IMG/VR virus record: IMGVR_UViG_3300012346_000561
Coordinates: 142,358-156,904 of that record
Source of the DNA: a virus
Taxonomy: Duplodnaviria; Heunggongvirae; Uroviricota; Caudoviricetes
Direction: 5' to 3' (one strand)
Length of the DNA stretch: 14,547 nucleotides
The notes under the pieces are model-generated. The model saw nothing but the letters and a program-made list of their open reading frames with translations. It searched no databases and was not told the origin of the DNA. A program made the translations under genes and the position numbers. Shown one piece after another: positions 2,459-14,547 of the stretch. Positions within the stretch are counted from its first letter, which is position 1, and each line of letters opens with the position of its first letter.

Positions 2459-2461
2459 TTG

Positions 2462-2611
2462 TTAAAATATTAAATTGTAAATTGTTGTCCATATAGCAAT
2501 TGTTATAGCTCCTAATAGGATCCATACAAATGCCTTTGTGTAGTCTTTTTTAAATCTCTGTTTAGGCTTTATACCTAAAGCTTCTTTTACGTGATCGTTT
2601 ACCTGTCTCAT
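2462..2611 (-). CDS. small single-pass membrane protein, 49 aa (MRQVNDHVKEALGIKPKQRFKKDYTKAFVWILLGAITIAIWTTIYNLIF)
   Basis: Manually found ORF that fills the 2459-2634 gap. Basic N-terminus and a C-terminal hydrophobic helix; lies directly downstream of a promoter motif. Confidence 0.7.
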   Translation of the reverse strand: MRQVNDHVKEALGIKPKQRFKKDYTKAFVWILLGAITIAIWTTIYNLIF

Positions 2612-2614
2612 AAT

Positions 2615-2646
2615 TACAATATATGAAATATATTTTATGATTCCAA
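2615..2646 (-). promoter_or_regulatory. Bacteroidota-type promoter, variant copy (TTG-N20-TATATTGTA)
   Basis: Minus strand reads TTG-GAATCATAAAATATATTTCA-TATATTGTA. It has the same 20-nt spacer and TTTC-N-TATATT core as the other five copies. Confidence 0.6.
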
Positions 2647-2937
2647 ATTTTCTGGATAGTATTTTTCATACAACTCTGCTTCTTTTCTTCCACAATCATC
2701 ACACTGTATCCCTCTTCCGACTGTATTTAGTGCTTGATCGTAGCAACAAATCTGATCTAGTTCTTCCATTTCCTCCTCAGTAAGATCTGTTCGTTCTAAA
2801 TTCTCCCACCAATCTTTTCTTCCCCACTTATCAATCTTTGCTTCCATTTCAGGAACAGGAATGCACATTGTTATGAATCCGTGATAACAATTTTCTTTTT
2901 CTTCACCACAGTGGTGACATGTTTCTAGTTTTTTCAT
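2635..2937 (-). CDS. Cys-rich putative zinc-binding protein (about 100 aa, start MKKLETCHHC)
   Basis: CHHC near the N-terminus, CDDC near the C-terminus, plus four further Cys. The ATG at 2937 overlaps the upstream TGA (ATGA) and is preferred over the ORF-track start at 2985. Confidence 0.7.
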   Translation of the reverse strand: MKKLETCHHCGEEKENCYHGFITMCIPVPEMEAKIDKWGRKDWWENLERTDLTEEEMEELDQICCYDQALNTVGRGIQCDDCGRKEAELYEKYYPENLES

Positions 2938-6265: not shown

Positions 6266-6287
6266 AACCTTTGCTTTTAAATTATAT

Positions 6288-6319
6288 CTAAATATAAGAA
6301 AAAAGACTCACATATGCAA
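6288..6319 (-). promoter_or_regulatory. Bacteroidota-type promoter (TTG-N20-TATATTTAG)
   Basis: Minus strand reads TTG-CATATGTGAGTCTTTTTTCT-TATATTTAG in an intergenic gap, 22 nt upstream of an ATG. Confidence 0.75.
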
Positions 6320-6327
6320 GCCTTTTT
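6299..6327 (-). terminator. intrinsic terminator embedded in the promoter spacer
   Basis: Minus-strand RNA AAAAA-GGCUUGC-AUAU-GUGAGUC-UUUUUU: 7-bp stem (4 Watson-Crick and 3 G-U pairs) plus U6, just after the metallophosphoesterase stop. Confidence 0.65.
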
Positions 6328-6336
6328 CCAATTATT

Positions 6337-7059
6337 TTATAAAAATTTTATTTCATTTGTGATGTGATCCCAATCAAACGTCATTGGCTTTTGAGTGTAT
6401 TCGTATTGCTCATCCAACACTGCTGCATTGAAGAAGTGAGTACCATCTTTAAACTGATAACCATATCCTGAATGAATATGTCCACATACATGAATCTTTG
6501 GTCTTAGTCTTTCGATTCTTTCTGCTAATAATTCACATCCTAAATTGTCATACTGTCTTCCTGTTACTGTATCTAGAGTTCCAAAAGCTGGACCATGAGT
6601 AACTAAGATGTCTGTATTGTCAGGAATTGCTTCCCACTTACCTGATAATTCAAGACTGTTTCTTTGTAAATTAAATGCCCAAGAATAGAATTCCGGTTGC
6701 CAAGGTGATCCGTAAATGCGAATATTACCTTCAGGATAATCTCCATTTGGACCATCACCGTACAATGTTAATTGCTCGTCTTGAAGATAGTCTACATTAA
6801 GGTGTTTGTTTATCCACTCCTGTACTTCTTCAGGATGATTTTCAAACATACGGTCATGATTTCCTGCTATGAAAATTTTAGCATCGTACTGTTTTAGAGA
6901 TCCAAACCAATATAAAAAGTCATGGATATCATTTTTATTATATCCTGAGTTCATAATGTCTCCGGCATGGATTAGAATATCTCCTCCAGGTAGATCTGAC
7001 ATTGGAATCAATCCATGTCTTGTATGTGTATCCGAAAGGACTGTTATTCTTGTTTTCAT
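6337..7059 (-). CDS. calcineurin-like metallophosphoesterase (MPPED1/2, 239FB-like), about 240 aa
   Basis: All five motifs are present: SDTH, AGDIMN, GNHD, THGP and CGHIH. The ATG at 7059 (MKTRITVLSDTH) follows the upstream stop and is preferred over 7110. Confidence 0.9.
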   Translation of the reverse strand: MKTRITVLSDTHTRHGLIPMSDLPGGDILIHAGDIMNSGYNKNDIHDFLYWFGSLKQYDAKIFIAGNHDRMFENHPEEVQEWINKHLNVDYLQDEQLTLYGDGPNGDYPEGNIRIYGSPWQPEFYSWAFNLQRNSLELSGKWEAIPDNTDILVTHGPAFGTLDTVTGRQYDNLGCELLAERIERLRPKIHVCGHIHSGYGYQFKDGTHFFNAAVLDEQYEYTQKPMTFDWDHITNEIKFL

Positions 7060-7060
7060 T

Positions 7061-7597
7061 TTATTTCCAATCAATTTTTGGACAGTATTTGTTGTATTTT
7101 GCTTTAGCAAATTCTACCACTAAATAAGTTTTTTCTTGTTTTGGTTCATTCCAAATTCTATAACCATTCTCGTCGTACTTTATCTTACGTCTATAGTTCC
7201 AATCTTTAAACGCTTTATACCCTTCAACAACACCTATTACAATTGCTATTACCCATGTCATAGTTCCTATGGAAACCATAGCCATATAGAAACTGCCTTT
7301 TTCGGGCAATACAAAAAATGCACAAATTAAGGATATCATAGAGGATATTACAAATAATATAAAATATGCTATTACACTCATCCCAATACGTTTACCTGTA
7401 CTAGTATCACTGTATTTGTAACCTTTGTCTGTTAGTTCTAAAACTATCATTGGAAGACATACTAATGAATAAGGTACTAATACTAACCATGCTAATACTA
7501 ATTTCCAAAAATATGGACATAAGTTAGTCGGTAAATCATTTGTTCCGTAGAACCATTTATACAATTTTGTTGATGTTGAATTTGAATTTAATGTCAT
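7061..7597 (-). CDS. hypothetical membrane protein, 178 aa
   Basis: Three long hydrophobic segments, LCPYFW near the N-terminus and KYCPKIDWK at the C-terminus. Confidence 0.8.
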   Translation of the reverse strand: MTLNSNSTSTKLYKWFYGTNDLPTNLCPYFWKLVLAWLVLVPYSLVCLPMIVLELTDKGYKYSDTSTGKRIGMSVIAYFILFVISSMISLICAFFVLPEKGSFYMAMVSIGTMTWVIAIVIGVVEGYKAFKDWNYRRKIKYDENGYRIWNEPKQEKTYLVVEFAKAKYNKYCPKIDWK

Positions 7598-7831: not shown

Positions 7832-8058
7832 AACGGTTGTTTTAAGTATTCTTTAATATCTTGAATTATTTTTAATTTTGGTGCCAATTCATAGACAAAC
7901 ATTCCTATTACTATGATATTGAGTATAGGTATTAGCATTAACAATACACCCACTACATACTCTCCTTTGGTAGAGCTACCATCTTTTTTAGCAACGTAAT
8001 AACCTATAACACTACTTACTATAAACGGTAAAACGTAGAGTAATAAAATCCAAATCAT
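7828..8058 (-). CDS. small 2-TM membrane protein, tandem paralog A
   Basis: MIWILLLYVLP...KKDG...LIPILNI; same length (76 aa) as its paralog; ATGA overlap. Confidence 0.8.
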   Translation of the reverse strand: MIWILLLYVLPFIVSSVIGYYVAKKDGSSTKGEYVVGVLLMLIPILNIIVIGMFVYELAPKLKIIQDIKEYLKQPL

Positions 8059-8080
8059 ATCTTTTGCTTTTAAATTATAA

Positions 8081-8112
8081 CTAAATATACGAAATTATAT
8101 TTGGCTTTCCAA
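8081..8112 (-). promoter_or_regulatory. Bacteroidota-type promoter (TTG-N20-TATATTTAG)
   Basis: Minus strand reads TTG-GAAAGCCAAATATAATTTCG-TATATTTAG, 22 nt upstream of the ATG at 8058. It contains the inverted repeat ATTTGG-AAAG-CCAAAT. Confidence 0.75.
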
Positions 8113-8571
8113 ATTTTTCATTATAATTTTATAAACTTTTTTACTCTTATGTGGATCTCCTTTTCCAATTGCCGGATGTATTATTGTTCCTGGAAATTGT
8201 TTGTAGTACCTGTCTAGAGTATTCTGATTCATTCTTCTTACTGTACCCCAGCCCCATGAACCTTGAATGACAAAAAGACGAGCATTTGGAAAAGTCCTCT
8301 TAATAGTATTTACTAAAATACTTATGCCTCTGTCCTTGTATCCATCGTTTACTCCAATGCATACACATACGCTTTTAACTGCAGGAGATACAGGGTATTT
8401 AAGTGTTTTCCTATTCAATTTAACAACACCTATACCTGATTGGCATAACTGTTTTACTTGTTTAATTTCAGTTGAATGCCTGGCCAGTAGGTATGTTTGT
8501 GAATCACCTATTAGGATATGTTCCTGACTAAAACTAAATATTGTAAATAGTAAAAGTAAATATTTTATCAT
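8095..8571 (-). CDS. SGNH/GDSL-family hydrolase with signal peptide
   Basis: N-terminal MIKYLLLLFTIFSFSQ, block I ILIGDS, block III CIGVNDG and a C-terminal D-x-H (GDPH). Confidence 0.75.
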   Translation of the reverse strand: MIKYLLLLFTIFSFSQEHILIGDSQTYLLARHSTEIKQVKQLCQSGIGVVKLNRKTLKYPVSPAVKSVCVCIGVNDGYKDRGISILVNTIKRTFPNARLFVIQGSWGWGTVRRMNQNTLDRYYKQFPGTIIHPAIGKGDPHKSKKVYKIIMKNLESQI

Positions 8572-8714
8572 TTATCTTTTTTTGGTTCATCTTCTCCAAA
8601 CAAATCCTCTCCTTTATAGTCTGGATGCTTTGTATGCATTTCATCTATTCCTCTAACCCATAGTGCTACTATTCCAATTAGCACAAATATTCCTATAGTA
8701 ATTAATCCCACCAT
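8568..8714 (-). CDS. small single-pass membrane protein, 48 aa (MVGLITIGIFVLIGIVALWVRGIDEMHTKHPDYKGEDLFGEDEPKKDK)
   Basis: Manually found ORF that fills the 8572-8701 gap. N-terminal hydrophobic helix; its TGA overlaps the SGNH ATG (ATGA). Confidence 0.7.
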   Translation of the reverse strand: MVGLITIGIFVLIGIVALWVRGIDEMHTKHPDYKGEDLFGEDEPKKDK

Positions 8715-9319
8715 CCTTCAATATTTTCTTCCATTATTTTAAATAACAACTTTCTTGCTCTGTCTTGATTTATATGTGCAATATTCATTGCAATAATTCT
8801 TTTTATTTCAGATTCATCTCTATCATCTAAAGTAAATGGGCCTTCACCTTTTAATACTCTCTTATAGACTAAAGGATACTTTTTAAAGAACTCATCATAA
8901 TTTTCCCATACTTCTTCTGAATTGTATAAAGATGATCCTGGTCTGTCTTCACAATCAGTAAACCAAACTCTGTCTTTACGGTAATCCATATACTCCATTG
9001 AATAAGGCTCATCTTGACATAATTGAATTAATTTAACACATGTTCTCATATTACGAGCATCTTGTTGTGCTCGTGTATGAAAATCTCTACGGCCAATATA
9101 ATTGGCTTGAGCTTTTAATTTATGTTTCATTACTTCATAAATGTAATGCCCATCCCAATTTCTATCTTTCCAGATAATTGGAAACCAGTAAATAAGATTT
9201 TGAATACCCCATTTAATTTCTTTATGTAAGTATTTACCATCATGATTCCACCACAGCCATATTCTTCTAAAGAAGTTTGGTCTTGGTTGGTTTTTTAAAT
9301 CTTCAAAAAAATCTTCCAT
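8702..9319 (-). CDS. hypothetical protein, 205 aa (Trp-rich N-terminal part, helical)
   Basis: Long ORF with operon tiling; no family recognised with confidence. Confidence 0.85.
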   Translation of the reverse strand: MEDFFEDLKNQPRPNFFRRIWLWWNHDGKYLHKEIKWGIQNLIYWFPIIWKDRNWDGHYIYEVMKHKLKAQANYIGRRDFHTRAQQDARNMRTCVKLIQLCQDEPYSMEYMDYRKDRVWFTDCEDRPGSSLYNSEEVWENYDEFFKKYPLVYKRVLKGEGPFTLDDRDESEIKRIIAMNIAHINQDRARKLLFKIMEENIEGWWD

Positions 9320-9323
9320 ATTT

Positions 9324-9515
9324 TTACTTTTTCAGTTGTTTAACTCTATTTTGTGTTTCTAAAGATAAAGAAACTTGAACTGGTTTTCCTGTTCGGATTA
9401 ATTTTTGAATAGCTTTAGATACTAGTTTTGATTCTTTTGAATTCATTAGAACTTTCCCTAAAGGTGATGCTACCGGAACACAACTACCAGTAAATTTTCT
9501 TTTGTACTCACTCAT
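9324..9515 (-). CDS. basic hypothetical protein (about 63 aa, start MSEYKRKF)
   Basis: ORF track 9324..9533. The ATG at 9515 directly follows the upstream TAG (TAG-T-ATG), the same junction type as at 976-980. Confidence 0.65.
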   Translation of the reverse strand: MSEYKRKFTGSCVPVASPLGKVLMNSKESKLVSKAIQKLIRTGKPVQVSLSLETQNRVKQLKK

Positions 9516-9516
9516 A

Positions 9517-9927
9517 CTACACTGTATGTTCAATTTGTACTCTTACACAATTCTGAGGTAATCTGTGGATGTGTCTGTAGTTGTTTACGTACCCCATCAT
9601 ATTTGCACTACCAACTGCATTTGCAGAATGTATTACAACATCAACAACAGGAGATCCATCAAGCCATTGATTGACCAACCATTTAGTGCAATCCATTCCA
9701 GTTTTCTCTGTAATGTTATCATAATTTAATTCGTAGTTGTGATACACGTTTGAGTGCCATTCAGCCATTGCTGAAGGTCCTAAATCATGATCTAATGAAA
9801 TTATATCAATGTTTTCTAATCCTAAGTCCTGTACTTTTTGTACAAACTCTTCGTAACTTCTTACCACAATCCAACTTGGATCAGTTGGTGTTCTTACGTC
9901 GTCTAAGTATATTTTATGTCTTAACAT
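9517..9927 (-). CDS. stand-alone divergent receiver domain of the cyclic-phosphate-processing REC type
   Basis: IYLDDVRTP, VRSYEEF, ISLDHDLG and IHSANAVG are the pattern of the phage-enriched cREC_REC receiver family. There is no output domain and no histidine kinase nearby. Confidence 0.75.
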   Translation of the reverse strand: MLRHKIYLDDVRTPTDPSWIVVRSYEEFVQKVQDLGLENIDIISLDHDLGPSAMAEWHSNVYHNYELNYDNITEKTGMDCTKWLVNQWLDGSPVVDVVIHSANAVGSANMMGYVNNYRHIHRLPQNCVRVQIEHTV

Positions 9928-9932
9928 TTTAT

Positions 9933-10763
9933 TTATTTTTTAAGTTGTTCAAACCATCTATCAAATCCTTGTTCAGTGTTAGTTCCTTTTGAATTCCACC
10001 AATGGTAAAAGAAATCTAAAGATATTTTTCTTACTTCTTCCTCACTATACTTATTCTTGTCTTGTTCTTGTTGCCATTTAGCACCTGAAATAAAATCTAA
10101 TTTTATTTGTTTAGTATATTCAACCCTATGGCTTCTTCCTGATTTTATAGTCTTTATTTTATAATTTTCAGCAACTTCTTCAAGTGTTTCTTGTTTATGT
10201 TCTTTAATTGGAATAGTACAACCATAACTACCATTTACTGTTGGTAATTCTTGTTTAGGTTCTTCTTTTGGAATGATGATTTTGTATTTCCAAACACATT
10301 TAGAATGATTCTGTCCTAAATCATTTGGGTCAACTTGTCTTCCCATAGGGTTAAAGAATCCATAAACAACATCAACAAAATCACAACTTGGATTCTTAAC
10401 AAACCATTCTAAGAACTCATCATGAATAGCTTGTATACCATCTTTGATTAATTCTTGGTCTGTTGTTAAGATGATTTTTTTCCAATCTCTTCTATCAACT
10501 AAACCCTGAGCGGCTGCCAGCTTTGGAGTTGCTTTAATTACTTCAATCCCATCAGTAACATATTCATCTCTAACAAATTTTTCTTCACTAGTAATGTACA
10601 TGTTATGTGGACGTACAGAGGCATCTGTAACACTCATATGATGTTTATATTGACTATAGGTCCAATAAGGTTCACCAGCTTCCGTACCAATAGCATAATC
10701 TCTATAAGAACGATTTAATGATAAGCGAGATTCTCCTGCTAGTACTAAATGTATGTTTTTCAT
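9933..10763 (-). CDS. hypothetical protein, 276 aa, modular type recalled from Flavobacterium-infecting phages
   Basis: MKNIH..SRL, NMYITSEE, KIILTTDQELIKDGIQAIHDEFLEWFVKNPSC and KQETLEEVAE...GAKWQQEQ blocks; the family attribution is from memory and unverified. Confidence 0.8.
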   Translation of the reverse strand: MKNIHLVLAGESRLSLNRSYRDYAIGTEAGEPYWTYSQYKHHMSVTDASVRPHNMYITSEEKFVRDEYVTDGIEVIKATPKLAAAQGLVDRRDWKKIILTTDQELIKDGIQAIHDEFLEWFVKNPSCDFVDVVYGFFNPMGRQVDPNDLGQNHSKCVWKYKIIIPKEEPKQELPTVNGSYGCTIPIKEHKQETLEEVAENYKIKTIKSGRSHRVEYTKQIKLDFISGAKWQQEQDKNKYSEEEVRKISLDFFYHWWNSKGTNTEQGFDRWFEQLKK

Positions 10764-10785
10764 AACCTTTGTTTTAAATTAATAT

Positions 10786-10817
10786 CTAAATATACGAAAT
10801 TTATTTTGATAAAACAA
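10786..10817 (-). promoter_or_regulatory. Bacteroidota-type promoter (TTG-N20-TATATTTAG)
   Basis: Minus strand reads TTG-TTTTATCAAAATAAATTTCG-TATATTTAG, 22 nt upstream of the ATG at 10763. Confidence 0.75.
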
Positions 10818-11163
10818 ATAATTCGTATGTAGAATTTTCTGTATTAAACTTAATATAATCTTCTCTTTGTTCTACAATCTCTGTTACTGGGGTTGTTTGC
10901 CAAGTGAATGAAGGTCCAAATGGAGACATTAATAAACTTCTTCCAACAGCAATGTCTTCAAAGTCTGCTCTGTATCTTCCATCTTCATCAAACTCTAACC
11001 ATTTTACATCTCTGGATGTTTTGGTTAGTTGATCTCTTCCTCGAACTAATCTGTATTTAGGTTCTAATTCTTTCCCAAATATAGACTTAAATGCTTCATC
11101 TAGATTAAATGTACCATCCTCAGTTTGAGTTAGTAGTATTTTTGGCTGTGCTCCTCCTATCAT
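10801..11163 (-). CDS. hypothetical protein, 120 aa
   Basis: ORF track; ATGA overlap with the upstream gene; beta-rich C-terminal half. Confidence 0.8.
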   Translation of the reverse strand: MIGGAQPKILLTQTEDGTFNLDEAFKSIFGKELEPKYRLVRGRDQLTKTSRDVKWLEFDEDGRYRADFEDIAVGRSLLMSPFGPSFTWQTTPVTEIVEQREDYIKFNTENSTYELFVLSK

Positions 11164-11375
11164 AACCCTTTTTCTTTTTTAAATTCTTTTAATAAATCCG
11201 CAATGTAATTTTCTCTATAAAAAACCGCTTCTGTATATCTAAGAACAAACCATTCCGCAAACTCAATAGCAAATTCATCTGCTATTTTTTCACATTCTTT
11301 AGCTTGGTAAAATGGTCTGTTTAAAGTTGGAGTTGCAGTATCTAATTGCTTTTTAAACTTTTCTTTTAGTGTCAT
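11160..11375 (-). CDS. hypothetical protein, 71 aa
   Basis: ORF track; MTLKEKF...CEKIADEFAIEFAEW helical small protein. Confidence 0.75.
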   Translation of the reverse strand: MTLKEKFKKQLDTATPTLNRPFYQAKECEKIADEFAIEFAEWFVLRYTEAVFYRENYIADLLKEFKKEKGL

Positions 11376-11376
11376 A

Positions 11377-11937
11377 TTAGAATTTATTTTTTAATTCTTG
11401 TTTCTTAATAATCTCTTTCAATCTCTGAACGTATGTTGGATCCTCAGCATAATTTTGTCTTAAGTATTCAAAATACTCTCCTTCAGTTCTAATATCTGAT
11501 AAATAAGTTGAGTAGTATAGAGCATAATCTAAAATGCAATCTTGCCATGTATCGTAGTAAGCATGTCCTCTATTTGTACCTTTTGCTAAATTAGCTCTTA
11601 ATTTAGCTTCCTTCATACCAAACATGTTGTTGTTCTCTAGAAAGATAGTTGATTTAAAATGCCCTGATTCTAATTTAGCTTGTGCTAAAATGATGTGAGG
11701 GTATCTAAAATTTAACTGATTGATCTTTTCAATCAATTTACTTTCTGAGAATCCGCTATACTCTCTGATTACGATTAATCTTTCTTCTTGAGATAGATTT
11801 TCTACTTTGTTAGCTGGATTAGATGTGAATCCAAATATTAAAAGTAATCCTACTGCTGCTCCTAAACCTGTTAACGTTTTGTTAGTAAGTTTTGTTTTTT
11901 CGAAGTCTAACGTCTCTTTATTAAATTTGTAATACAT
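11377..11937 (-). CDS. GH73 glucosaminidase-domain peptidoglycan hydrolase with N-terminal membrane segment
   Basis: ILAQAKLESG (catalytic Glu), NNMFGMK, Y-x-T-W-Q-D-C-I-x-D-Y and YAEDPTY motifs; hydrophobic GLGAAVGLLLIFGF segment near the N-terminus. Confidence 0.88.
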   Translation of the reverse strand: MYYKFNKETLDFEKTKLTNKTLTGLGAAVGLLLIFGFTSNPANKVENLSQEERLIVIREYSGFSESKLIEKINQLNFRYPHIILAQAKLESGHFKSTIFLENNNMFGMKEAKLRANLAKGTNRGHAYYDTWQDCILDYALYYSTYLSDIRTEGEYFEYLRQNYAEDPTYVQRLKEIIKKQELKNKF

Positions 11938-11962: not shown

Positions 11963-11994
11963 CTAAATATACGAAAAAAGAGTTGAACTAGCAA
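11963..11994 (-). promoter_or_regulatory. Bacteroidota-type promoter (TTG-N20-TATATTTAG)
   Basis: Minus strand reads TTG-CTAGTTCAACTCTTTTTTCG-TATATTTAG, 25 nt upstream of the GH73 ATG. Confidence 0.75.
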
Positions 11995-12001
11995 CTCTTT
12001 T
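11974..12001 (-). terminator. intrinsic terminator after the NAMPT-like gene, embedded in the promoter spacer
   Basis: Minus strand reads AAAA-GAGTTG-CTAGTT-CAACTC-TTTTTT: a perfect 6-bp core (10 bp with the A/T extension) plus U6. Confidence 0.7.
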
Positions 12002-12032
12002 AACAATTATTTTAATGTAAATATTTTATACC

Positions 12033-13538
12033 TTACTTGTTCTGTAAGCGTTTACGAATCTCTGTGAGAGTAGTTTCGTTTTGGAATTGACCATCTTTGT
12101 AGATTGTCTGAAGTTCTCCGTTTGCTTCTACTTCCCATGAAACTTTATCAACTAACATGTAATTATTTTCATTGTGTCTAGTTACATGTAAAAGTCCGGT
12201 TGCTGATTTCTTAGTTCCATCGTCAGTGATTGGATCTTTAAAGATTTCTCTCGCTTCTCCATCAACTTCAACGTAGGTTGCTTTCATTGCAAAACCAAAA
12301 GTATCTCTGGTGTTGAATTGGTATGTGAATGATCCCACTCCTAATACGATATTTGTACTTGCAAATCCTTTTGCTTCTAATCTACTGCAAATTTCATTTG
12401 CTCTTTCTATTGTAATGGAATCTCCGTAGATTGCTCCAATATGAGAATCTAAAACTTTGTAACCTTGTTCGTTGATAGTTCCGCCGAATACATCCCAAAG
12501 TAATTCAATAACACCTTTGTATTCCGGACTACCTTCATCTACGCCATACTTTGGGTAATTGTAATCCAAATTTTGTTCATCACCTGAATTAATAGTGTGG
12601 TAAGCTCCACAAATAATATCAACTGGATCACCTGAGTCAGGACGAATAACTAATTTACCATCTCTTGCAAGAATCTCTTCTTTAAGAGTTACAACATGTT
12701 CGGTACAAACTTTCCATAAATCCCAAGTATCTGATACAACTGATAAAATACCGGTTGGATATGTTTCTAACAATCTACGGAACGTTCCAACTTCGTCGTC
12801 TTTACTTCCAGCACACATAACTGAATGCTCAGTTGCATTTACACTTCCACAAACTGCTTCAGTTTCTCCGTAGAATTTTCTTGCACCATAAATTGTTGGT
12901 AAACTATCACTCCCCATAAAAGATGTTAAGTGTCCAAGTCCTGAAGAGATAACTGCTTCAACTGAATCCATACCTCTCATTGAGAAGTCATGCCCTTGCC
13001 AGTCGATAAACCAATCTCTTTCAGCGTCAGTTTTTTCCATCCAACTTGTTAATACTTTACGATATTGGTGTGCAATAGTTGCAGAAGTCATTGGTTTCCA
13101 TAATAGGTTAGAGATGATTGTCTCTAAATAATTTGTAACCCAGTAGAAATCTGGATGTGTGTTGTAGATGGTTAGTACCGGTACTTTGATAGGTACTAAT
13201 GTTCCTTCTGGAAGTGCTTTAGCATTGGTAGGTAAGTACCCTAAATCATGTAAAGCTTCAAAGTGAGAAACATCATAATCAGTTCCTAGGTACATTGATA
13301 ATTCACGTTTCATTTCCCCACAAACTTCATCTTTAGGTTTACTAAAGAATTCGTTTTGGAATGCTTCATGAATTTGTTTCATAACCATCTGTTGACCGAA
13401 ACTTACTACTTGCTCGCATCCTTTAGGAGCATATTTGTTACTACGAGGAGTAAAGTTAGAATAAACCAAAGTAGTTCCTTTTGGATACTGTTGGTGATGT
13501 CCTGTTTTATAACCGTCTGTTAAAAATAGTGGATTCAT
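12033..13538 (-). CDS. nadV: nicotinamide phosphoribosyltransferase-family protein; probably the Namat (nicotinamide ADP-ribose transferase) of NARP1
   Basis: TDGYKTGH, HDFSMRG, ATEHSVM, SVVSDTWD, VIRPDSGDP, AIYGDSIT and VLGVGSF motifs of the NAMPT fold. The Namat call is inferred from adjacency to the Prs-like gene. Confidence 0.93.
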   Translation of the reverse strand: MNPLFLTDGYKTGHHQQYPKGTTLVYSNFTPRSNKYAPKGCEQVVSFGQQMVMKQIHEAFQNEFFSKPKDEVCGEMKRELSMYLGTDYDVSHFEALHDLGYLPTNAKALPEGTLVPIKVPVLTIYNTHPDFYWVTNYLETIISNLLWKPMTSATIAHQYRKVLTSWMEKTDAERDWFIDWQGHDFSMRGMDSVEAVISSGLGHLTSFMGSDSLPTIYGARKFYGETEAVCGSVNATEHSVMCAGSKDDEVGTFRRLLETYPTGILSVVSDTWDLWKVCTEHVVTLKEEILARDGKLVIRPDSGDPVDIICGAYHTINSGDEQNLDYNYPKYGVDEGSPEYKGVIELLWDVFGGTINEQGYKVLDSHIGAIYGDSITIERANEICSRLEAKGFASTNIVLGVGSFTYQFNTRDTFGFAMKATYVEVDGEAREIFKDPITDDGTKKSATGLLHVTRHNENNYMLVDKVSWEVEANGELQTIYKDGQFQNETTLTEIRKRLQNK

Positions 13539-13547
13539 ATAAATTGA

Positions 13548-14453
13548 TTAAAATACGTTTAATTGTTCTAATTTGTAAAGTTCGTTGTCATTTTTAATTG
13601 TGAATTCATTGTCATCTTTACTGCAGTATGAATTTGTAGTAAAAATTCCATCAAAGTACTTATTTAACTCTTTTAGTCCTGCACTGAAAATACCATGTGT
13701 CACTACTAGGTAGATTTTAGCACTTATTCTTTCTTTCTTAATTACTTTGGCTAATTCTATAAAAGTTCTACCACCGTCACATATATCGTCAATGATTACA
13801 TATTGCATACCGTCATTAACCGAGTCAGGGTCTCCAATTGAACCTGGTAGATTAGGTACTTCAGTTTTTACAATCTGACCTGTTCTTACATCTCTTACTT
13901 TGTTTGCTGTAATTATATTCTCAATTTGAAAATGTTTAGCAACATCAAAGATTTTCTTATATGCACCTGCATCAGGACTTACTAGGCAAATTCTTTCTCT
14001 AGCATTGTTTTTATTATCGATATTAGTTAATGCGTATTTTACCAGTAGAATGTTATCGATTTTTACAAAATTATTTAAACAAGCTTCTAATACATCTGAG
14101 TGTGGGTCTAGAACTGTTACAGCAAAGAAGTTTTGACTATTGATAATTGGACAAATTACCTGCTTAAGGTAGTTGCTTCCGCCTTCTTGAAATTTACGAT
14201 CTGAACGTGCACCGATAAAATACGGAACAAACAATCCTACATTTTTAACTCCTATATTCTTAAGAGCTTGGTTTGCACAGATAATTAATTCTACATCTCT
14301 AAATGATGTCATTCTGGATTGAATTACAATATTGGTTTTATCGTAGTTGTATCCTGCCTCTAAATCGATGGTTTGTTGACCATCAGGGAAGCTGCTAATT
14401 TTATATTTTACGTCTGATTTCTCAGGGTTAAATAAGTTTAATTTTTTCAACAT
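13548..14453 (-). CDS. prs: ribose-phosphate pyrophosphokinase-family protein; probably the Adps (ADPR-PP synthetase) of NARP1
   Basis: FPDG, PYFIGARSDR, DPHS, VSPDAGA, IIDDICDGGRTF (PRT loop) and THGIFS motifs; directly upstream of the NAMPT-like gene in one transcription unit. Confidence 0.9.
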   Translation of the reverse strand: MLKKLNLFNPEKSDVKYKISSFPDGQQTIDLEAGYNYDKTNIVIQSRMTSFRDVELIICANQALKNIGVKNVGLFVPYFIGARSDRKFQEGGSNYLKQVICPIINSQNFFAVTVLDPHSDVLEACLNNFVKIDNILLVKYALTNIDNKNNARERICLVSPDAGAYKKIFDVAKHFQIENIITANKVRDVRTGQIVKTEVPNLPGSIGDPDSVNDGMQYVIIDDICDGGRTFIELAKVIKKERISAKIYLVVTHGIFSAGLKELNKYFDGIFTTNSYCSKDDNEFTIKNDNELYKLEQLNVF

Positions 14454-14482
14454 AACACTATTTGTATTAATTAATAATATAT

Positions 14483-14514
14483 CTAAATATAAGAAAAAAG
14501 AGTTGAACTAGCAA
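14483..14514 (-). promoter_or_regulatory. Bacteroidota-type promoter driving the prs-like/nadV-like pair
   Basis: Minus strand reads TTG-CTAGTTCAACTCTTTTTTCT-TATATTTAG, 29 nt upstream of the ATG at 14453. Confidence 0.75.
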
Positions 14515-14521
14515 CTCTTTT
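14494..14521 (-). terminator. intrinsic terminator for the upstream (out-of-window) gene
   Basis: Same GAGTTG-CTAGTT-CAACTC-T6 hairpin as the left copy. An upstream frame ends ...GDSH-TAA at 14532-14534. Confidence 0.6.
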
Positions 14522-14547
14522 AACAATTATTTTAGTGAGAATCTCCT

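Follow-up and report, generated by a model that had tools for sequence, protein, structure and literature searches.

We analyzed a 14,547-nt stretch of viral DNA (Duplodnaviria; Heunggongvirae; Uroviricota; Caudoviricetes) spanning positions 142,358 to 156,904 of IMG/VR virus record IMGVR_UViG_3300012346_000561, hereafter the window, in which two near-identical 52-nt terminator-promoter (T/P) elements, copy A and copy B, flank a pair of adjacent genes that we read as a predicted NAD+ reconstitution pathway 1 (NARP1) operon, adps-namat. In related phages a single T/P element occupies the corresponding site, with the left flank of copy A and the right flank of copy B. Our favored reading is that homologous recombination within the T/P element either brought the NARP1 operon into this phage or removed it from the relatives, and we assign this reading a probability of roughly 0.72.

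A near-identical repeat pair encloses two genes

Copies A and B lie in direct orientation with a start-to-start spacing of 2520 nt and agree at 51 of 52 positions, arranged as 42 identical nucleotides, a single T/G mismatch and 9 further identical nucleotides; beyond the 52-mer, the copies mismatch again after one further base. A preliminary description of this DNA had reported 52-bp repeats of this identity and spacing around a prs-like and a nadV-like gene and no other gene, and we confirm that exactly two open reading frames (ORFs) lie between them. The same description proposed counting further copies across the genome, and our genome-wide search found the hairpin-bearing 52-mer exactly twice in 156,904 bp, with the 42-nt exact stretch of copies A and B being the longest exact direct repeat in the genome. 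Chance cannot account for the pair.

Both copies share the same internal order, consisting of an A/T box (TAAAATAATTG), a hairpin (10-bp stem, 6-nt loop), a T-run and the core C(G/T)TATATTTAG, with an ATG located ~25 nt downstream of the core. We interpret them as one composite intergenic element that would combine the A/T box, an intrinsic terminator (hairpin plus T-run) and an early promoter of the host sigma-A type. In an alignment of the five copies in the window, a TTG positioned 20 nt upstream of TATATTTAG is invariant and coincides with the end of the hairpin 5' arm; a simple sigma-70 scan reads the same site as TTGCTA-17-TATATT, and the core resembles the sigma-A -7 box of flavobacteria, TAnnTTTG (PMC9723704). 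Copy B is predicted to terminate namat and to drive the downstream GH73 glucosaminidase gene. An Rfam scan of the window returned no match.

Genome-wide, this promoter class occurs almost exclusively on the gene strand, with five copies in the window (Table 1) and a cluster at 98-114 kb, and every copy in the genome other than A and B carries a different stem or no stem. Of the four additional promoter copies counted in the preliminary description, three are clear in the window and the fourth is a degenerate copy near 2615-2650; these copies had been described as sharing the core motif only; they share the leader and the TTG as well as the TATATTTAG core, each with a different hairpin. The promoter half of copy A matches the copy near 6283 over 16 nt, rather than copy B, so the informative duplicated part is the 42 nt comprising box, hairpin and T-run. 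Within window 2459-2650 (minus strand), the degenerate sixth promoter-like copy precedes an unlisted small ORF of ~50 aa with a hydrophobic stretch.

Single-copy sites in related phages

Relatives were retrieved using the exact 24-nt hairpin, which yielded 9 viral and 12 metagenome contigs (related loci are given by L numbers). Metagenome contig L148, which is 97.4% identical over the T/P element and GH73 (645 nt) and whose GH73 protein is 98.4% identical at the amino acid level, contains one T/P copy; its left flank equals the 13 nt that flank copy A, and the sequence on its right is identical to the copy B promoter, leader and GH73. The same single-copy arrangement is present in L143, L142, L145, L152, L006-L010 and L017. 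An empty site of this kind, in which a single copy joins the upstream gene to GH73, had been anticipated in the preliminary description and is thus found in L148 and about ten other loci; these sites retain the GH73 promoter by sequence, in agreement with the accompanying claim that GH73 expression would survive loss of the two genes.

We found neither adps nor namat anywhere in three complete relatives, using a search that detected both genes in the phage's own genome as a positive control. These relatives comprise genomes of 167 kb and 168 kb (the latter with terminal repeats) and Flavobacterium phage vB_FspM_immuto (Immutovirus, 160 kb; hereafter immuto), which is the nearest named relative and is ~75-85% identical in nucleotide sequence where alignable.

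Single-copy sites that combine the left flank of copy A with the right flank of copy B are what would be expected if a unit had recombined into, or had been deleted at, a resident element. The earlier proposal that recombination at the repeats explains presence and absence of the genes therefore accords with the single-copy sites as well as with the three complete relatives that do without the genes. The probable ancestral arrangement is a single element upstream of the GH73 lysin gene, and the 13-nt flank of copy A is, as far as these alignments indicate, the ancestral upstream context.

The enclosed genes as a predicted NARP1 operon

The two enclosed genes are separated by 9 nt. Among solved structures, the 501-aa protein best matches SpbetaL1 Namat (9W5X and 9W5W, E 5e-157), ahead of human and other Nampt at ~1e-64. 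The 301-aa protein is 35.6% identical to a homologue from Vibrio phage Gary (E 2e-28), whose operon has been experimentally tested (bioRxiv 10.64898/2026.01.28.702374), compared with a best E of 1.7e-11 for cellular phosphoribosyl pyrophosphate (PRPP) synthetases (PRPS). Adjacent phage genes labeled 'prs' and 'nadV' have been described as encoding Adps (ADP-ribose pyrophosphorylase) and Namat (nicotinamide ADP-ribose transferase), which rebuild NAD+ from the products of NAD-depleting defenses, and the same study describes NARP2 as Nampt plus Nmnat in phages without Adps (Osterman et al., bioRxiv 10.1101/2024.02.11.579819).

Because the Namat matches beat those to Nampt, and because the smaller protein lies nearer to phage homologues than to cellular PRPS, we read the pair as NARP1, with predicted Adps and Namat. 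The likeness extends to the gene arrangement, with a PRPS-like gene adjoining a Nampt-fold gene in a phage, and to the active site, in which catalytic R306 and clamp F392 are conserved and position 396 keeps an aromatic residue, Phe in place of Tyr. The differences are this Y396 substitution and a Lys at the position of the SpbetaL1 variable-loop R40, and the activity of the pair is predicted from sequence; the roles of the Namat residues are taken from the Namat structure paper (PMC12774641), and an Adps structure is also available (PMC13586617). We considered and rejected an assignment to NARP2 (Prs plus Nampt), given that an Adps homologue is adjacent, that the enzyme groups with Namat and that Namat is the best solved match. 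The preliminary description had called the pair a prs-like and nadV-like NAD-reconstitution cassette, and its assignment to anti-defense NAD metabolism holds at the level of family, with the correction that the predicted substrate is ADP-ribose and the route is not the Prs plus NadV route through PRPP.

In the extended form of the pathway, NARP1-AP, a Macro-domain phosphatase accompanies the operon, and none is present here. A calcineurin-like phosphoesterase (L001:6682-7362, immuto35A_34) occupies the slot upstream of GH73 in immuto, and of 80 Namat loci in other phage contigs, 12 have a homologue of this phosphoesterase no more than 5 kb from adps/namat (L058, L065, L068, L082, L084, L089, L107, L108, L118, L125, L127 and L130). 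We rejected this protein as a link to NARP1-AP, whose published phosphatase is a Macro-domain protein; the phosphoesterase may nonetheless be functionally linked to NAD/ADP-ribose metabolism as an enzyme other than the Macro-domain phosphatase.

Proposed route of gain or loss

We propose that a self-contained adps-namat operon, with its own promoter half and leader, would have entered or left within the T/P element by homologous recombination, which can be described formally as the integration or excision of a circle bearing one hybrid element. The expected outcome would be one element on each side of the operon, copy A with the ancestral left flank and copy B with the ancestral promoter, leader and GH73. 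The cassette would constitute a moron-like transcription unit, and its products, judging by known families, would rebuild NAD+ from ADP-ribose, nicotinamide and ATP in opposition to NAD-depleting host defenses. With 42-52 nt of homology, RecA/UvsX-type recombination could still delete the 2520-bp unit while GH73 stays expressed, and transfer of the unit would be possible in principle; exchange is probably rare, as is the case for the promoter-early stem-loop (PeSL) mini-circles of T4-like phages.

The homologous recombination needed could be supplied by the phage itself, which encodes a RecA/UvsX-like protein of 359 aa (PF00154, 29 bits; genome C1:~18100-19180, minus strand; locus L156); a Sak4-type recombinase (PF13479) is absent. 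The route had been termed recombinase-independent in the preliminary description, which is apt in that a site-specific recombinase would not be needed, but RecA-type homologous recombination would be required, and the RecA/UvsX-like gene is a candidate source of it.

It is quite unlikely, in our assessment, that the repeats form an active device, with frequent, reversible excision of a 2.5-kb circle and unequal exchange by which NARP1 is gained, lost, amplified and dose-tuned. For such a device, the 42-nt exact match between the directly oriented copies and the phage RecA/UvsX-like gene would provide the substrate, presence/absence polymorphism is seen among the relatives, and PeSL mini-circles have been found by inverse PCR in RB49/phi1. 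The RB49 circles were, however, too rare for Southern detection (PMC2839356), and neither gene is duplicated, in tandem or elsewhere, in this genome or in any of the 80 related loci. Since NARP1 would act catalytically on defense products, a benefit from dosage is not evident. Moreover, 42 nt is near the minimum length for efficient RecA-type exchange, which also counts against frequent excision.

Exchange within the element and age of the cassette

Several related loci point to exchange inside the element. In L151, the same upstream gene end, box and hairpin are followed by another promoter half and another gene, and in L147 a different left flank precedes the same T/P element and GH73. Repeat pairs are also found elsewhere, such as a 50-nt exact T/P pair with another hairpin in L016 (L016:5925-5974 and 7493-7542, 1568 nt apart), which encloses GH73 and two small genes, and an exact 70-nt pair in L056 (L056:6120-6189 and 7834-7903), which lies in a string of small genes. 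The identical 24-nt hairpin additionally stands before unrelated genes with a different promoter half (the TTATCTTTAAGTAT type) in L053, L054, L056, L144, L146, L149, L150 and L153. The occurrence of the hairpin in unrelated contexts with another promoter half suggests that the terminator half circulates as a module of its own.

The preliminary description took the near-identity of the two copies as a sign of a recent event, and this is not borne out. Orthologous T/P elements upstream of GH73 are identical to copy B at 49-52 of 52 positions in genomes whose GH73 is only 83-86% identical in nucleotide sequence, with L143 matching at 52/52; these loci were retrieved via the hairpin, so 24 of the positions match by construction, and the other 28 are also nearly identical. 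When relatives were instead retrieved via GH73, the element was either almost unchanged or wholly replaced by one with another hairpin. Since the element is conserved between diverged genomes, the 51/52 match does not serve as a clock.

As for the cassette, adps and namat are usually linked in viral contigs, where Adps homologues are at most 67% identical in amino acid sequence. A T/P-like promoter stands before the pair in L065, L082, L084 and L108, and a T/P element stands behind Namat in L118; the hairpin of the element studied here is absent from all 80 Namat loci. We detected no compositional anomaly in the cassette, whose GC and GC3 match those of the genome.

The strong conservation of the element between diverged genomes also bears on an explanation without recombination at the repeats, in which the copies resemble each other through gene conversion or through selection for a good terminator and the cassette arrived by illegitimate or gene-boundary recombination. 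That explanation would further fit the breakpoints seen at almost all gene boundaries, with or without an element, and the recurrence of the same 24-nt hairpin in unrelated gene contexts of other phages. Against it, the ancestral left flank is found precisely at copy A and the ancestral right flank at copy B, a configuration that integration predicts and conversion does not require; the remaining copies in the genome all have different hairpins; and the hybrid elements in L151 and L147 point to exchange within the element. We consider it improbable, on a par with the active device.

Genomic setting and contig ends

All genes of the window lie on the minus strand, and the window forms the final 14.5 kb of a single-contig record that is classed as linear and 96% complete, with only 13 nt between copy A and the contig end (Table 1). 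Synteny with immuto runs on from the contig end to the contig start, through GH73, tRNAs and further genes. The 13-nt left flank of copy A together with ~10 nt of the contig start matches the 3' end region of the gene upstream of the relatives' T/P element; specifically, the element is preceded in relatives by a 375-aa gene whose 3' end is similar to the ~10 nt between tRNA-Ile and the copy A flank. Because both the synteny and this short homology cross the join, the contig ends adjoin in the real genome, giving a coding-strand order of tRNA array (11 tRNAs), T/P(A), adps, namat, T/P(B) and GH73. Immuto has 3-4 tRNAs at this place, and L006/L009 have 7-8 others located ~4.5 kb further upstream. 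The homologue of GH73 carries an endolysin annotation in a relative.

Table 1 Features of the window and of the adjoining contig start (window positions unless marked as genome)
Feature	Position	Strand	Remarks
Copy A of the 52-nt T/P element	14534..14483	-	Upstream of adps; A/T box, hairpin 14521-14496, T-run, core TATATTTAG
Copy B of the 52-nt T/P element	12014..11963	-	Hairpin 12001-11976, TTG 11994-11992, core 11971-11963
adps, PRPP-synthetase-like, 301 aa	13548..14453	-	Pribosyltran and Pribosyl_synth domains (Pfam); predicted ADP-ribose pyrophosphorylase
namat, Nampt-fold, 501 aa	12033..13538	-	NAPRTase and NAMPT_N domains; predicted nicotinamide ADP-ribose transferase
GH73 glucosaminidase (endolysin-type) gene	11377..11937	-	Downstream of copy B; conserved, anchors the site on its right-hand side
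Left flank of copy A, 13 nt	14535..14547	-	Identical to the left flank of the relatives' single T/P element upstream of GH73
Array of 11 tRNA genes (Ile, Asn x2, Phe, Tyr, Ser, Val, Lys, Pro, Gln, Ser)	genome C1:13-1482	-	Adjoins window position 14547, directly upstream of copy A
T/P-family copy, different stem	10781..10830	-	
T/P-family copy, weak stem	8076..8130	-	
T/P-family copy, strong 14-bp terminator hairpin	6283..6340	-	Promoter half equals that of copy A over 16 nt

Exact matches to the GH73 and Adps proteins were found only in short Logan contigs of run ERR3489831 (L154:1-65 and L155:1-69 at the repeat), which indicates that the phage is present in this run; both contigs start at the same base inside the repeat, consistent with a k-mer break, and are therefore uninformative on linkage. 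It is highly improbable that the cassette of a co-occurring phage was threaded into the contig via the shared repeat. Such an artifact would fit the position of copy A 13 nt from the end of a linear, 96% complete record and the break of the Logan contigs within the repeat. Against it, both junctions with their distinct left flanks lie in the contig itself, ordinary reads and the final assembly k-mers are longer than the 42-nt repeat, synteny and micro-homology run across the contig ends, and the cassette composition equals that of the genome.

Points that weigh against recombination within the element

Several points weigh against gain or loss of the operon by recombination within the T/P element. 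The tRNA array upstream of copy A differs from the upstream gene of the relatives, implying a second breakpoint ~22 nt to the left. Among 80 Namat loci of viral contigs, we found no donor with a near-identical cassette, the best Namat being 84% identical in amino acid sequence, and an exact-protein look-up found no record of this Namat protein elsewhere. Across 37 related loci, nearly every gene boundary of the region is a mosaic breakpoint, and T/P boundaries are not clearly richer in breakpoints than others in a crude count of alignment ends per boundary; given this lack of a clear excess, we do not claim the element as the main driver of shuffling in the region, nor as its sole route. Finally, the promoter and terminator activities of the element are predicted from sequence, and the reading draws on assembled genomes.

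Mosaicism is also apparent further into the window, where gene order between 2900 and 11400 is reshuffled in nearly all relatives, with the blocks 8590-9332, 9518-9934 and 10816-11166 occurring in varied orders.

Significance and comparison with known systems

If recombination within the element is the correct reading, this site would offer a clean case, at the level of assembled genomes, of a lytic phage gaining or losing a counter-defense pathway without a mobility gene, with both filled and empty sites seen. It would further predict that NARP1 carriage is unstable and host-dependent in this phage group, and genes might be engineered into Flavobacterium phages with the element as a natural landing pad. 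A broader possibility is that NARP1 moves as a self-contained unit from one phage to unrelated others, flanked by repeats that contain a terminator, that such promoter-terminator repeats are a general vehicle for exchanging anti-defense operons without a mobility gene, and that the cassette could still excise, reinsert or amplify measurably under NAD-depleting defenses; we regard this extension as unlikely.

The closest comparison is with PeSLs, composite promoter/stem-loop cassettes that T4-type phages carry in their hyperplastic regions (Arbiol et al. 2010, PMC2839356; Comeau et al. 2014, PMC4122927). PeSL indels consist of two PeSLs flanking an extra ORF in one phage and a single PeSL at the empty site of a sister phage, with rare mini-circles recovered by inverse PCR (PMC2839356). 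The T/P element resembles PeSLs in pairing a host-type early promoter with a terminator stem-loop such that the stem-loop and the upstream promoter box overlap, in occurring in many copies nearly all on the gene strand within a mosaic variable region, and in an indel with two elements around the extra genes and one at the empty site, for which we propose the same route through a hybrid-element circle. The mechanism is not new; Arbiol et al. 2010 set it out as the mini-circle model for PeSLs.

The differences lie in promoter, phage and cargo. The promoter here is of the Bacteroidota type (TTG-N20-TAtaTTTAG), whereas PeSLs belong to T4-type phages and follow the E. coli sigma-70 consensus; the phage is Immutovirus-like rather than T4-type, and the sequence of the element is unrelated to PeSLs; instead of ORFans, the cargo consists of a two-gene operon whose anti-defense function is known; and mini-circles have been detected for PeSLs, whereas the present element is known as a sequence. 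Given the differences in phage group, host phylum and promoter grammar, the element is not a PeSL by descent, though it would work like one. On this comparison, terminator-promoter shuffling of the PeSL type would extend from T4-like phages of Proteobacteria to phages of Bacteroidota with another promoter grammar.

The cassette also invites comparison with the morons of Hendrix and colleagues, defined as autonomous units with their own promoter and terminator that lie between genes neighboring each other in relatives and confer a fitness benefit outside the lytic core. Classical morons are mostly found in temperate phages and expressed from the prophage, and duplicated flanking elements are not part of their definition. 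In the window, the operon lies between the copy A promoter half and the copy B terminator, the right neighbor, GH73, is conserved, and the left neighbor differs from that of the relatives.

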